The notes beneath the pieces were generated by a model. The model was not told the DNA's origin. It was given only the letters and a program-made list of their open reading frames with translations, and made no database searches. DNA of 55,171 nucleotides, filler included, from Perkinsus olseni (taxonomy: Eukaryota), in NCBI GenBank assembly GCA_013115125.1. It is 2 parts of 2 records of this genome, joined end to end, with 100 filler letters (N's around TTAATTAATTAA, not from the genome) between each part and the next. Parts side by side here need not be neighbours in the genome. Positions count along the whole stretch, not along the records: positions 1 to 27,545 come from JABANN010000463.1; positions 27,646 to 55,171 come from JABANN010000464.1. One strand, 5' to 3'. Below, in pieces: positions 4,430 to 45,400 of this stretch; position 1 is the stretch's first letter, and each line of letters starts with the position of its first letter. The position numbers were made by a program, and so were the translations under genes.

Positions 4430-7400
4430 GATACCCCCAAAAAAAGGGACAAGTTCACAGTGTCTTTGCAGTGAAAAGTTTGCACTCAGAACAATTCTAA
4501 ACTCACCAGAGGGTTCATCAGCATTTCCCGACCAAGAGTCACGTGAAACTCAGAAACTGCATACCCTCCCCCTCTTCCCCAAGGACCTCCCTGATTACAT
4601 CCTTCCCGATCTCAACGTGAGCTCCGCTGCGCCTCGAGAGCTCATCCAAGAATCCAGCCTTCACCCACGAGTTGATCGTATTGCGCCCAACGACCACCGA
4701 GAAGTAAGAAGCCTCATCATGATCTATATCAGAACCTGGACAACACACAGAGCATCAGCGGACAATGAACACCTGCAAGATTCGCGATGAAATGGGCCCG
4801 GGCTTATCGAGCGGTCCACGCTTTCGCTCACTATATAGAGAGAGGTCGAGAGCTGCTCGCCTTTCCCTATTACCAAGTCTATCAGCAGCAGTCCCCAATG
4901 CCACAGCGGCATTATCTAGAGACCCTCTCTGTCGGAATGCGGACGATGACTCGCTAACTCCCTCATAGCTATGCGATCCACGATGGCCCTGACAACAGCA
5001 ACCCTTTCCGTCAAGCCCTCGAACTCCGGCCGTACCCTAGGGCTCTCGGTCGAGCGACCATGAGATTGATATTCCTGTTGATGGTGATGATGATGCCTCG
5101 CCCTCTTGCTTTCTGGGCTATATTCTCTATCCCTGTCCCCCGGATGTTGATCTCTCCTCCCGACTTCCTCCTGGCCCCGACCTGCCCCTTCCTCTGGCGA
5201 GGACGGCGTGGCCGGCATAAAACTCAACTCGATCGCAACGAGCACCATCAACGCTGCTTTAACCTGACCCAGATCCGCTATGCTCAGTCGAAGACGATTC
5301 GCCCTATCGCCAACCAAACGGCTTCGCACTCCCCAACCTACCCGCTTATCGAGAGACCCTTCAAAAGTTACGAAGCGCGTCGGCATATCACTAGACTCGC
5401 TCTTCTGAACTTGAACGTTGCATCCTGATCGGAAAAACCTTCATCCTTCGTTCTCACATACGTGTACGGCAAACAGCACTTTCATACCGTGATGCCAGGA
5501 TGAGCGGCAGACAGTCGAGAAAAGATAAGAGAACAAAAAGAGTTACGTCAAACCCGTACACGACGAACTTTGCCAAGGTTCTCAAGCGAGCACTGGGAGT
5601 CCTCCAATGCCTCATCGCACCTCACTCATCGCTTTACGACGAGGAATCTCACATTATCATCAGCCGCGAACACCGTGCTTCATTACACAAACAATATACA
5701 GGAACGTTGATGCTTGACTAGAAATGATGGACATGAAGTTCATCTAGCATACAAGGGCCCGCCAGAAATTACAAAGGCCACCGGCCGTTCCAACCCCACA
5801 AAGCGGTCCACCCTTATACGGCTATTACCAGTAGTTTTACATATCCAGTTGATAGTGTCTCCTCCTCGTCCTATAACGTTACGTGTCTTGCTAGCTTGTA
5901 TAAGTAGCTCAGTGTACTGAAAAAACAACGAGAGACACTCGCCTCCACCATCCAAACCGTATGAAATCTCACTGCGCAGACTATACAACGGCATGAGCAC
6001 AAAAACTAGCGAATTCCACTCCCACGAAGCCACACCCAGTCAACCCATTCCCTCGCCGCAACCCTCGCATTGTACCGACTGTCCCCGCCATTGGAATTTC
6101 GAGGCGCGCGAAATACCCCAGACCGCAATACTTTATCTTCCTTCACATCCAAGACCTCCATAGTCTTCACCATGCCCCTGGATTTCTCCGCCATGGTCCC
6201 TCTCAACACCATCACTTCATTACGATTGGGCGCCAACTGATCAAGACACGCATCACAGGTGCTCCCCAGTCCACATTGTAAAGCGGCGGAGCACGATACT
6301 CGGTTGTGAGGATGGAACCCCACTCGACATGCTTCTTCAGATGGCATCGTACAGCCTCAGGAAATTACCTTAGGGTTAGGTGGGAACTGATCAGCCTTTT
6401 CAAATTGTATCCTGGCTCCACTGCAGTGTTCAATCTCTGTGATCGACTTACCATTCTTACCAATAACGAATGCCGAATAACGTCTATCAACCACCAGCAT
6501 CACTGGCGACCCCGAGTCCTGAAATCACACAACGCAATGGCCCAATAAACCATCCCATAGGAAGTCTCCCCAAGCATAGACTCGAGGCGCTTGTTCCTCC
6601 TGTCGAAAAACTACTCCTTCAGGAGAAGACGCCTTTTAATTCTGATCCTTACTGCAACAACACACCGAACGCAGTTCTTCTCTACTCACTGAGAGCGTCA
6701 ACCGACACCCCTAATCTCACCTGATCTCGAGGAATCTTTTCCAATCCTGGTACCCACGGCACAACAACTTCTCCAGGTCTACTCTCGATCTCAACCGGTG
6801 GTCCCGGTGGCGGAGGGGGAGGTGGTGGTGCACTCCGATCACCCTGTCGATCTGAGAGAAACCAGTCTAGTGACCGCAGACCCCATCCTTCTCAACTCAC
6901 CACTGCCCATCACAAGCGCGCTCGCCTCCTCGAAGGGGATCCGCTTGCTTCGTACTACCTCTTCGACCTGCACAACAACAATACCCCAAGCATTCACCGC
7001 GATTCATTTAAGCACAGCGGTGAGCCATTCAACGCAGCTCTGTCGAGATCCGCTCGACTGTAACTTTCCCGGGCAACTCGCTAGCACTACCGTATTCCTG
7101 AGCTTGCTTATAACGGCAGCGGTCGCCTCGTCCGACCCCTTGATGATGACCGGTCTGACCATCATACCCTCAATAGGTGCCTTGGCAATCTGAGAACAAA
7201 AGTGCAATCCCTGGGAATCGAACCTGGGCCAATACTCACCGTGACTTCGCAGTGAAAATCTGATTCCAATGCTCGCAGTCGTTGGCCTCTCCCATCAAGG
7301 AACGCAAACGATGTAACCTAGATGACAACAACAAGGTAACAAAGTAGCATTCAACCGTCCACGCAATGAGCCTGGGTCAGAGAACCCAAGGCTGGGCGCC

Positions 7401-42434: not shown

Positions 42435-45400
42435 ATGCCCATTAAACTGTGGCGATGGTGGGATGGCAGTAGACCACCGCCGGCGGCGGCGCCTTCTGAA
42501 GAGGATGTGTATCATTCGTTGGGAGGAGGGGCGTATTACAGTGCGTGTAGTTTGGAAGAGGAGTTCGACCAGTATCGGCCATTGCCCACCAATGACATGA
42601 TGGTAACAACTTGGGGAAGAGAACGCTTAAGGAAAAAGAAAAAATAGTTTGGAAGAGGAGAGGTGATTTTCCTATTTTTTATCAGAAACAACCGAACAGT
42701 CGCAGCGTGAACGGTAAATTAGGAGAGGCCTTCAGCGGGCGAAGCCACGGGTTATCATCGTTGGACTCGTTATTCATAACACCCACCCCGGCTGGTCGAA
42801 GGTCACGTTATAATTCTACCACTGGTACGTCTGACGTGTCATCCAGCGCTAGGTGGCGGCAGAAAAGGATTATACCTTGGCATGTTGGCGGGAAGAGGGT
42901 AATAATAAAGATGATCATTCCGTTGCCGCCCCGGTTGAATTTTCCGGTGTAGCAAGGCGAGTTGGTCTCTGTAACCTCATGAAGACTTCCATTAACAGTC
43001 CCTTCAGCGCCCCCTATCATGAACGACCATGGATTGTCTACTGGTTCCCGGTCGTCAGTGATGGTTGCTGTCAGGTGCGCCTCAGTCGCCGGATGAAGAT
43101 AGCTTTGTCATGCCTGAGTGTTTGCCTGGTGGTGTTTCTGATTATCTACAAGCTCTTCGACGTCTTGCCGTGGAGGCTCATCAGCATACCACTCGTTAGC
43201 GTAATCATAGGGCGGAATAGCATAGTGGTCATCTCTCTTGCTTCACATGCCATTCTCCCGGGTTCGAATCCCCGTGGTTGTTCAGGTAGTGTTTACTTGG
43301 TTTCATATCTGGTTGGCATTACAGATGTGCTTCTTCCCAATCGACTATTGGGGATGGGATATAACGGGTCACCACCAAGGCCTCGGCTGGCAGGGAATCG
43401 TCCCGCGGAAGGCTGACAAGATGGCTGGCACCGCATGTGACCTCATGGTAGTACTGCGGGGCTGGTGTTCGGAGACGTTTAATATCCGCACTGCCATAAG
43501 ATGAGTGGAATTTAACCCAATCACGGCGATAATCTACTATCGGGCTGTGTTATCTCTTTGCTATGTTTTTCTACACGAACGCGGTTCTCCCTGTCACACA
43601 GTTTATCGGAACAATCTGTAGCACACAGTCCACGGGCAGAGGGAATCACCGCTTTTGCATAGCCGGTAGTTGACATTAATGCCTGATGATTCATGGGACC
43701 CGATAGGGTAGCCTCTTCGGTGGACAGGATCATACGATGTACACTGGGCTCACTTAGCGCATAGTGCTGCTATTTGCTGACGATTGCCTGGTCAGGTTGA
43801 TAGGCTTATCTACGTGAAAGAGATCGTTGAGCGAATCGACGCTACTGACCTCTATCGGTATTTGAGTTCGACTGGCATCTTGCGGAGCGTGCAACAGGAG
43901 GTCAACCGCAGAATTGGCAACAGGTGATGATACCCGCCTTCGTCTTCGCGCCTGGACTCTACCTCCCTCAGATGGTTCGCCGGAGTGTGGTCATCCCTGC
44001 CCGGTGCGGTGAAGGAGGAGCTCCTCGAGAAGTCTCTGGAGTTGTCGGAAGACAGTTTACAGAGCATGGTGGCGGAGGCTAAGAAATGCCTGATGGACAA
44101 GGACTTCTTCGATGTTAGGGTAATCAAGGTTCGCGTCCGTAGGCTTGAAGTGGTCTGTTAAGGAGAGAACGTCGCAACTAGTGTTAGCATGGAGTGTGTG
44201 AGCTTATAGCTCAACGCCGGTTCCGACTTAGTGAGAATTGCTCAGTCGGGACTCTCGGAGTGAGCGGATATGATTCGTAGGTGTTGAATCGTAGAGTACA
44301 CGCAATCTTGTTACCAATGCTCGAGCACTCGTCCGTGGTACTCGCGAGGAATGAGAAGAGATGAGAGCTCCAACCTTCGTCAGTGTGCGTCCTTCCCCAC
44401 TGGGTTGTGTTATGCTAGAAAAAGTTTCGACCCTCCCTCCCTCCCGCCCTGAGGAAGGTCAGTCGACCCTCTCATCGCTTCTCTCTCACTCCGTGATGAT
44501 GCACTTCTTCTTGTCTTACGGAAGGGGACGATGAGTGATATCAGGATTTGATAATTCGATGCTTCGTGGATGACCGAAGGATGCTCTCGGAGTTCTTCAT
44601 AAAAATTGGCAAAAAGGAGCTGCACTTCCTCGAGTTCATGGGAGCAGTTATGGGGTTGATATGCGGTTTGGTGAGTCCTCGGGTAACTTGCTTGCATCAT
44701 GCCCATCACCCACAGGCCCAGCTAGCGCTGTACATGTTCTTACCTGCTCATTACCGTGGACAGAGGGACTCGGCATACAGCTGGCTCCTCTTCCCGCTCA
44801 CTGGTCTTGTTATTGGTCTCTTTACCAACTGGGTGGCACTACAGCTCATATTCCGCCCGGTAGGCTGATGGCGAATATCTGAAGGTTTGAGGCTGTCGGT
44901 TTGATCAGGTGGAGCCTCACGTTGTTAGGATCCCCTGTACGGAGCAGAGGGTGAAGGTCCAAGGCCTCTTCCTTCGGCGTCAGCCTGAAGTCTCAAGAGT
45001 TTACAGTTCTCTTGTTTCGGACAGTAAGATGTTTCTCTGTTCATCTAACGTCCCAGGTTCGAATCTCGCTGTGTGCATTCACTCAGGTATCCTCAATTGC
45101 AGTCGTTTTGTAGCATATTTACAGACAACGAAAGGGTGGGATAGAATCCTCGAGGTTTTCAAGGAGACCATTAACAGCACCGTGGGTGGGATGATTTCCA
45201 CGCCCGCGGCCATAGCGATTAAGATGGCGGGAAAGGAAGGCTCGTGAGCTCGGCTTGCAATTTGCTCGTTGTGTTCCACGTTCTCAGCGGTCTTCGATCT
45301 TCAGTTACGAGAGGTTCAAAAACGACGTAGCGCATGAGTTGAGAGTGGAGCTGAGCCATCCTCATTACGTGGAGATGTATGAGCGGTAATCATCCTGAGG

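Follow-up and report, generated by a model that had tools for sequence, protein, structure and literature searches.

Sense-oriented tRNA-like segments with a perfect B-box motif near the 3′ splice sites of Perkinsus olseni introns

Nine segments of a 55,171-nt stretch of DNA from Perkinsus olseni (assembly GCA_013115125.1; the whole stretch is referred to here as the window), eight of them supported as spliced introns, carry in sense orientation the motif GGTTCRANNC, the B-box/T-loop consensus of tRNA genes, together with further hallmarks of tRNA. The window is nuclear DNA of an alveolate parasite of molluscs, and its genes have matches among proteins that their sources assign to P. olseni, P. 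marinus and P. chesapeaki. On balance the segments are probably relics of the 3′ thirds of tRNA genes that have been reused at the 3′ ends of introns, with the B-box kept for a function in cis. The coordinates of all the features are itemized in Table 1.

The motif occurs 17 times on the two strands of the window, against 3.98 ± 2.27 in 100 dinucleotide-preserving shuffles of the whole window (maximum 10) and a mean of 4.1 in a second set of 40 shuffles. An original prediction, made from the sequence alone, had listed nine copies in introns, all sense to the host gene, and had put the expectation for the window at about three. Each of the nine was recovered at its position and on its strand, all are indeed sense to the host gene, and the excess stands. 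A further copy is the T loop of a real tRNA-Gly. The other seven do not much exceed the four or so that the window shuffles give by chance; that at 19335 is coding (Gly-Phe-Asp-Thr) within an ALDH exon, and two (8628 and 42238) are possibly relics as well.

Introns were accepted only where RNA contigs or annotated proteins support them. Among the contig runs X13 is recorded as RNA, X7 is guessed to be RNA, X8 is of unknown kind and X1 is DNA, and the evidence from contig joints draws on 15 of 54 joints. The claim that the nine segments are spliced introns is supported for eight of them, three by contig joints, one by an RNA exon boundary together with the reading frame, and four by annotated P. 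olseni proteins and the continuity of homologues. In the BDP1-like gene, contigs from the runs X7, X8 and X13 jump over 11519–11880, 11974–12026 and 12456–12634, all of which remain in the DNA run X1, and removal of these three introns and nine more gives an open frame with ankyrin repeats and a bromodomain. In the KH-domain gene 7190–7239 is skipped by the P. olseni protein P0004 with no mismatches, and P. marinus P0007 aligns either side of it. Similarly 16775–16820 of the ALDH-like gene is skipped by P. olseni P0009 with one mismatch, and P. chesapeaki P0010 aligns with the sequence to either side. The spliced model of the DUF445 gene is the same as P. olseni P0001 at 551 of 556 residues, and P0001 skips both of the segments in this gene. 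The more distant homologue P0003 is continuous across the junctions of both 43201–43285 and 45024–45086, as are P0001 and P. marinus P0002 across that of 45024–45086. At 23559–23638 a piece of RNA contig stops exactly at 23558 though the record goes on; removal of the segment fuses two open frames, and keeping it leads to a stop.

The ninth segment (8517–8580) is located in the 5′ untranslated region (UTR) of the KH gene, upstream of the start codon at 8223, and is unconfirmed as a cis intron. Contigs of X7 and X8 stop at 8515 and 8518 respectively. It may be a 5′-UTR intron or the acceptor of a spliced leader, which Perkinsus mRNAs are described as receiving (PMC3101222). The names originally given to the host genes are borne out for KH, for BDP1-like (ankyrin repeats and a bromodomain), for ALDH (from the names of its sources) and for DUF445 (PF04286). 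Two exons of the gene named GPR89 have no Pfam match, and it is called here simply a membrane-protein gene.

RNA joints and protein-guided mapping give a set of 57 introns (BDP1-like 12, DUF445 12, KH 14 and ALDH 19), with a total length of 8,905 nt, a median of 68 nt and a shortest member of about 43 nt. Their sense strand contains seven perfect motifs compared with 0.33 ± 0.58 in 500 shuffles (maximum four). None is found on their antisense strand, nor in the 5,917 nt of counted exons of the same four genes. Comparison of sense with antisense, and of introns with shuffled introns, had been put forward with the original prediction as its check, and in these 57 introns both come out in its favour. 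The motif-bearing introns are distributed as 3/12 in the BDP1-like gene, 2/12 in DUF445, 1/14 in KH and 1/19 in ALDH, approximately one intron in eight. In a k-mer scan of the last 40 nt of the introns that made no use of the motif, words from the B-box ranked high: TTCGA was the top 5-mer (eight introns against 2.8), GGTTC the fifth (nine against 3.6), and TCAAGT the third 6-mer (four against 0.46). The sense strand is rich in G and T, and might on that account be supposed to yield the 10-mer by base composition. The probability of this is next to nil. Dinucleotide shuffles of the window and of the introns never reach the observed counts, the one- and two-mismatch classes are not raised, and additional tRNA hallmarks are present; for this window the idea is refuted.

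Some other properties of the 57 introns were noted. Their 5′ splice sites conform only loosely to a consensus (GTAAG, GTGAG, GTAAT and GTAGG, with GTAGTG or GTAGTA in at least five; examples are at 11974, 12130, 12456, 43448 and 8580). The acceptor is strong, with the form (T)CAG/G where the slash marks the junction, and no branch-site consensus was found in the set. Five introns, all of the ALDH-like gene, have in their 3′ portion the sequence GTCGAG, which resembles the core of the B-box minus one T; 0.88 would be expected. An excess of GGGTT and CGGGTT in sense introns was set aside, as it comprises mostly CGGGTTG-type sites and not T arms.

The nine copies were aligned on the motif, in register with the tRNA-Gly of the window, which provides the numbering. 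The motif itself is perfect in all nine by selection. Outside it, the variable-loop nucleotides G46, U47 and C48 are present at 18 of 27 positions (p = 1.2e-5), the freely varying pairs of the T stem are formed in 25 of 36 cases against 15.7 expected (p = 0.0015), and G71, C72 and A73 of the acceptor strand are present at 16 of 27 positions (p = 6.5e-5). In the seven non-intronic, non-tRNA copies the T-stem pairs number 8 of 28, roughly the background level of 40%. The partly paired T stem and the acceptor strand remarked upon in the original prediction are thus both there, and the data support the conclusion that the segments are tRNA-like beyond the 10-mer. All four free T-stem pairs are formed in 11974–12026 and in 12456–12634.

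The extent of the likeness varies with intron length. As judged by eye, the 80- and 85-nt introns have stretches resembling a D arm or A-box and an anticodon arm; in 23559–23638 the D-arm-like and anticodon-arm-like stretches are upstream of the B-box, and in 43201–43285 an A-box-like TAGCATAGTGG is located 44 nt upstream of it. In the 63-nt intron a hairpin resembles an anticodon arm. The introns of 46–53 nt begin near the variable loop, so that shorter introns retain less of the 5′ side of the tRNA; in 16775–16820 the B-box begins 8 nt into the intron. There is no whole tRNA or cloverleaf among the nine copies, and searches of the whole window with Rfam RF00005 or ARAGORN at its default setting called none of them as tRNA. 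With the ARAGORN threshold lowered to 85%, four of the nine were called (43201–43285 among them), of 13 calls in the window. The description of these introns as built from tRNA fragments is overstated for those of 362 and 179 nt. None of the copies has CCA after position 73, and in three of the nine (those with motifs at 7215, 11537 and 11993) a TTTT run starts where the tRNA-like part ends or one base later. Taken together these two features suggest that the source would be tRNA genes with their trailers, not cDNA of mature tRNA.

The tRNA-like end (position 73) is located 2–13 nt before the acceptor in seven of the nine segments (p = 0.003 for uniform placement with the intron lengths considered), and eight of the nine relics end at position 73 plus 2–17 nt. 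The most telling single case is that of the 362-nt intron 11519–11880 (chance 0.04), where the tRNA-like piece lies at the extreme 3′ end and is followed by TTTTAG. In 11974–12026 the continuation is C-TTTTCAG. In 7190–7239 CTTTTG follows the tRNA-like 3′ end and the acceptor is 13 nt past position 73; in 8517–8580 the AG is 2 nt beyond the tRNA-like end, and in 43201–43285 CAG comes directly after position 73. The acceptor strand of 45024–45086 ends GC-A. The proposal that the end of the tRNA and a short T-run make up the acceptor region agrees with these distances and with the TTTT of three of the nine.

Might Perkinsus introns use the motif as their branch-site signal? Its A is located 18–29 nt before the acceptor in seven of the nine copies, and there is no other clear branch consensus among the 57 introns. 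Branch sites that pair with U2 have the pattern yUnAy or CURAY, which the motif does not resemble. Moreover it is found in only 7 of 57 introns, 11974–12026 has a classical GCTGAC downstream of it, and in 12456–12634 it is 157 nt from the acceptor. This role is very improbable, and was rejected.

While the motif is intact, its surroundings are not. Of the free pairs of the T stem about 31% no longer form, and the tRNA has lost its 5′ two-thirds. The 57 introns have 9 sense copies with one mismatch against 7.04 ± 2.63 expected, and the window as a whole has 81 one-mismatch copies against 84.9. Decay at the rate of the stems (estimated at approximately 0.2 per site) predicts about 15 one-mismatch copies for every seven perfect ones, compared with an observed excess of 2 ± 2.6. 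From an intact 10-mer amid decayed stems, with no excess of one-mismatch copies, we infer that the B-box/T-loop is probably under purifying selection.

The same numbers bear upon the possibility that tRNA genes or pseudogenes landed in existing introns and are simply decaying there, the perfect motifs being those that have not yet mutated. Such neutral debris would be in keeping with the failure of any copy to be a working tRNA, with the decay of stems and 5′ parts, and with the near-chance number (about four expected) of the seven other non-tRNA copies. It predicts about twice as many one-mismatch as perfect copies, however, where the excess is 2 ± 2.6 beside seven perfect, and it does not lead one to expect the lack of antisense copies or the coupling of position to the acceptor. 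The host introns are also too short to take an insertion. Since the relic nearly fills introns of 46–85 nt, its entry into a pre-existing intron, which would have measured about 43 nt or more, would require later deletions. We regard this origin as decidedly unlikely.

By 31-mer counts the copies are single-copy, with a word depth of about 83–89 in the DNA run; elsewhere it rises to 617 in the bin of the tRNA-Gly gene and to 661 in a repeat at about 21.1 kb. Compared pairwise, the flanks of the copies show 35% identity against a null of 26% ± 1.5%. This likeness is that of shared tRNA features, and is far from family-level similarity. It fits either different source tRNAs or one old family, because the positions that vary are exactly those that are unconstrained. 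A covariance model built from the copies (R1) found no convincing further copies in the window. The next scores were 13.9, 12.9 and 12.7 bits (E 0.16–0.31), leaving a gap between 13.9 bits and the 24–35 bits of the training copies.

The explanation that we favour can be set out as follows. The relic would comprise the variable loop, the T arm with its intact B-box/T-loop, the 3′ acceptor strand to the discriminator base and a short T-rich trailer, and in most cases would form the 3′ end of the intron. The former trailer, with its RNA polymerase III (Pol III) terminator, and the next AG would have become the pyrimidine tract and the 3′ splice site. By analogy with the intronic tRNA look-alikes reported to enhance splicing in human cells, the most likely reason for retention is that the B-box/T-loop acts in cis on the pre-mRNA near the 3′ splice site. 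Action on pre-mRNA would be the simplest account of sense-only orientation combined with closeness to the acceptor.

A number of observations weigh against this explanation. Two of the nine are exceptions to the position near the acceptor, the relic of 12456–12634 being at the 5′ end of the intron and 16775–16820 continuing for 17 nt after the tRNA-like end. Some coupling is forced by short introns, the chance per intron being 0.34–0.71 at 46–64 nt. The hallmark tests were picked after the sequences had been seen, though they use textbook invariants of tRNA. A scan with RF00005 gave no match at any copy, and searches of 7100–12700, 43190–43295 and 23545–23650 at E ≤ 10 likewise gave no tRNA match there. 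As there was no Rfam score even on 106-nt stretches, the homology rests on about 30 positions. RNA folding revealed no unusual stability (z from −1.34 to +1.46), with the T hairpin in the minimum-energy fold for some copies only; these ordinary folding energies argue against a structured RNA element. The numbers behind the absence of a halo of degenerate copies are small, and by eye three one-mismatch matches look decayed (12243–12282, 11261–11301 and the start of 44120–44544). Lastly, all the results come from a single 55-kb window of P. olseni, which is a narrow basis for genome-wide claims.

The conserved part of the relic is exactly the DNA B-box, and this keeps alive a reading in which the element functions as DNA, as sites for TFIIIC similar to extra-TFIIIC (ETC) sites or as short Pol III promoters within Pol II genes, with the co-directional orientation tolerated and the head-on one selected against. 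The B-box consensus is exactly what has been conserved, whereas decay has affected the T stem on which an RNA hairpin would depend; there is no stable RNA fold; and in 43201–43285 the A-box-like sequence is at the typical spacing. ETC sites with conserved B-boxes are reported from yeasts (PMC3395662). Nevertheless, binding to double-stranded DNA alone leaves unexplained both the sense orientation of all nine copies and their closeness to the 3′ splice site, and about one copy per eight introns would be far denser than the ETC sites of yeast. A function at the DNA level seems unlikely.

The manner in which the segments arose is a further question. They could be products of intron gain, in which a tRNA-derived mobile element or captured tRNA-gene DNA was inserted sense into exons in the way of introners and spliced at once, the Pol III terminator and AG acting as acceptor; the relic would then mark the introns that arose in this manner. 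This is compatible with reuse of tRNA-gene 3′ thirds at intron ends, but we consider it doubtful. It would account for introns of 46–85 nt that are nearly all relic, for the nearness of the tRNA-like end to the acceptor even in the 362-nt intron, for the sense-only orientation, and for the spread over five unrelated host genes. On the other hand, inspection by eye found no target-site duplications or terminal repeats at the intron ends. The copies are single-copy at the 31-mer level and their flanks have diverged, so there is no sign of recent mobility, and insertions at random would hardly be excised exactly in frame unless a dedicated mechanism existed. In favour of gain, P. marinus is described as having unusually many tRNA gene copies, and also Dada transposons that target tRNA genes (Kojima & Jurka 2013, PMC3706591), so that sequence of tRNA genes is plentiful and in flux within the genus. 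No Dada element was identified in the window. A metagenome scan with the KH exon as query gave no relatives; the equivalent scan with the DUF445 alignment gave 80 loci of 26–36% identity, mostly uninterrupted and none Perkinsus-like, which were not used.

The segments can be compared with several known systems. The human intronic tRNA look-alikes (nimtRNAs) are described as promoting splicing in a position-dependent manner and binding proteins of the 3′ splice site (Hoser et al. 2020, PMC7722341). They are likewise tRNA-derived sequences in spliceosomal introns of Pol II genes that are not processed as tRNA. The nimtRNAs, as described in that source, comprise a whole cloverleaf of mitochondrial derivation that is required for their effect, whereas the Perkinsus segments correspond to a nuclear-type 3′ third. 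Neither the Rfam searches of the sub-stretches nor the folding z-scores indicate a maintained cloverleaf in them. The Perkinsus host introns are also tiny, and the frequency of about one in eight introns is unlike that system.

Introners, too, place related sequence in the introns of unrelated genes, always sense, and supply splice signals. They are multi-copy and highly similar, often with target duplications. The Perkinsus segments do not form a set of many near-identical copies within this one window, as their depth (approximately 83–89) and flank identity (0.35 against 0.26) indicate. In a 2024 review of transposon-derived introns the words SINE and Perkinsus do not appear, and tRNA is mentioned in connection with tRNA introns (PMC11282704). 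Short interspersed nuclear elements (SINEs) derived from tRNA also keep the B-box while the stems decay. Unlike SINEs the relics have no tRNA-unrelated body, tail or target duplication that could be seen by eye in the copies, and they end at position 73 plus a trailer.

The resemblance to ETC sites lies in an isolated and well-conserved B-box with no functional tRNA around it, and in sequence terms the copies do present the B-box consensus outside any functional Pol III gene. ETC sites are few and mostly intergenic in yeast, and are not known to bear any relation to splice sites or to the strand of a host gene. Finally, GUT15 of Arabidopsis is described as an intron-encoded tRNA-like RNA that depends on the host transcript (PMC6152437). 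Both it and the mascRNA of MALAT1 are, like the segments here, tRNA-like elements sense in a Pol II transcript. They fold like tRNA and are cut out as stable small RNAs, whereas the Perkinsus relics have no 5′ acceptor strand; the Rfam mascRNA model applied to 43217–43281 gave only 11 bits (E = 8.2). The copies lack a defining feature of each family for which a comparison could be made here, be it the cloverleaf, the multi-copy family or the SINE body and tail.

Some additional copies of the motif deserve mention. The possible tenth copy in the 5′ region of the KH gene, for which the evidence is that of sequence, has its motif 30 nt before TTCCAG and a poor T stem (1 of 4 pairs). If it and 8517–8580 are both introns, then 8581–8607 (minus strand) between these two B-box segments of the 5′ UTR is a micro-exon of 27 nt. 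The relic at 42226–42275 is closely similar to 8517–8580 in its variable loop and T arm, with an R1 score of 12.9 bits (E = 0.28). Of the two degenerate copies in BDP1-like introns, 12243–12282 (GGGTCGATTC) scores 8.1 bits (E = 5.3) and 11261–11301 (GGATCGATTC) 8.5 bits (E = 4.4) with R1, and neither is significant. A low-complexity stretch rich in CTAG and GGCTAG (52540–52620, plus strand) lies ahead of the chance copy at 52598.

The tRNA-Gly gene is the only full tRNA in the window. It is situated between the KH and BDP1-like genes and is antisense to both. A 47-letter DNA contig over its 3′ part has a depth of 1594 compared with approximately 83 nearby, so that the sequence is multi-copy in the genome. 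One X7 contig has T instead of A at 9388.

Table 1. Positions in the window of the motif-bearing segments and of the related features described in the text
Feature	Position	Strand	Details
Intron, KH-domain (IGF2BP3-like) gene	7190–7239	−	50 nt; B-box 7215–7224
5′-UTR segment, KH gene	8517–8580	−	B-box 8531–8540; cis-intron status unconfirmed
Intron, ankyrin + bromodomain (BDP1-like) gene	11519–11880	−	362 nt; B-box 11537–11546
Intron, BDP1-like gene	11974–12026	−	53 nt; B-box 11993–12002
Intron, BDP1-like gene	12456–12634	−	179 nt; B-box 12603–12612
Intron, ALDH-like gene	16775–16820	+	46 nt; B-box 16782–16791
Intron, membrane-protein gene (GPR89 of the original prediction, name not verified)	23559–23638	+	80 nt; B-box 23609–23618
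Intron, DUF445 gene	43201–43285	+	85 nt; B-box 43261–43270
Intron, DUF445 gene	45024–45086	+	63 nt; B-box 45056–45065
Possible tenth copy, KH 5′ region	8608–8642	−	perfect motif 8628–8637
tRNA-like relic	42226–42275	+	perfect motif 42238–42247; sense, upstream of first mapped DUF445 exon
Degenerate copy in BDP1-like intron 12130–12318	12243–12282	−	one T missing; AAGGT before it
Degenerate copy in BDP1-like intron 10956–11357	11261–11301	−	GAGGT before it
Other non-tRNA copies of the motif	8628, 19335, 31984, 38042, 42238, 49284, 52598		seven copies
tRNA-Gly(UCC) gene	9332–9403	+	ARAGORN; Rfam RF00005 72.3 bits
GTCGAG-bearing introns, ALDH-like gene	16527–16573, 16654–16696, 17377–17444, 17558–17615, 18365–18427		

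Elsewhere in the window, a repeat at approximately 20800–22200 (plus strand) lies just after the ALDH-like gene, with a DNA depth of 661 in 21009–21675 and many loose ends over 20809–22080. It is possibly a transposon. The open reading frame of 406 amino acids within it (21185–22402) has no Pfam family and no usable match in the protein atlas. A near-perfect palindromic hairpin of 68 nt at 54257–54324 gives sub-threshold matches to plant and animal microRNA precursors (37.9 bits at best, where the gathering score is 80), and is probably a small inverted-repeat element. In the open reading frame 50915–51616 (plus strand) an N-terminal extension of 140 residues comes first, and the final 90 residues match a core histone fold (PF00125, E = 7e-26); the gene is possibly that of an H3 variant or a CENP-A-like protein. 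The two stretches of 44 N at 27546–27589 and 27602–27645 were read as assembly gaps.

The origin of new spliceosomal introns is a long-standing question, for which the known bulk sources are introners of the transposon type. The literature searched, to which the subscription-journal Perkinsus genome papers and supplements did not belong, contained no account of tRNA-like sequence in the spliceosomal introns of Perkinsus or other alveolates. It can be suggested, though as an unlikely proposal, that these segments represent an undescribed class of introns. These would arise by repeated sense entry of tRNA genes into coding sequence, with the terminator and an AG serving as acceptor, the B-box kept and the rest trimmed to approximately 45–50 nt; hypothetically the B-box might then be recognized either in the RNA, by a factor associated with splicing, or in the DNA, by TFIIIC. 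If the frequency of one in eight holds genome-wide there would be thousands of such introns. The findings would bear on the annotation of both tRNA genes and introns in these parasites of molluscs. If the proposal is true, tRNA genes, which carry a T-run and an internal promoter of their own, would join the list of intron sources; alternatively, the relics would provide a conserved intronic signal in an alveolate in which the 5′ splice-site and branch consensus are otherwise weak.

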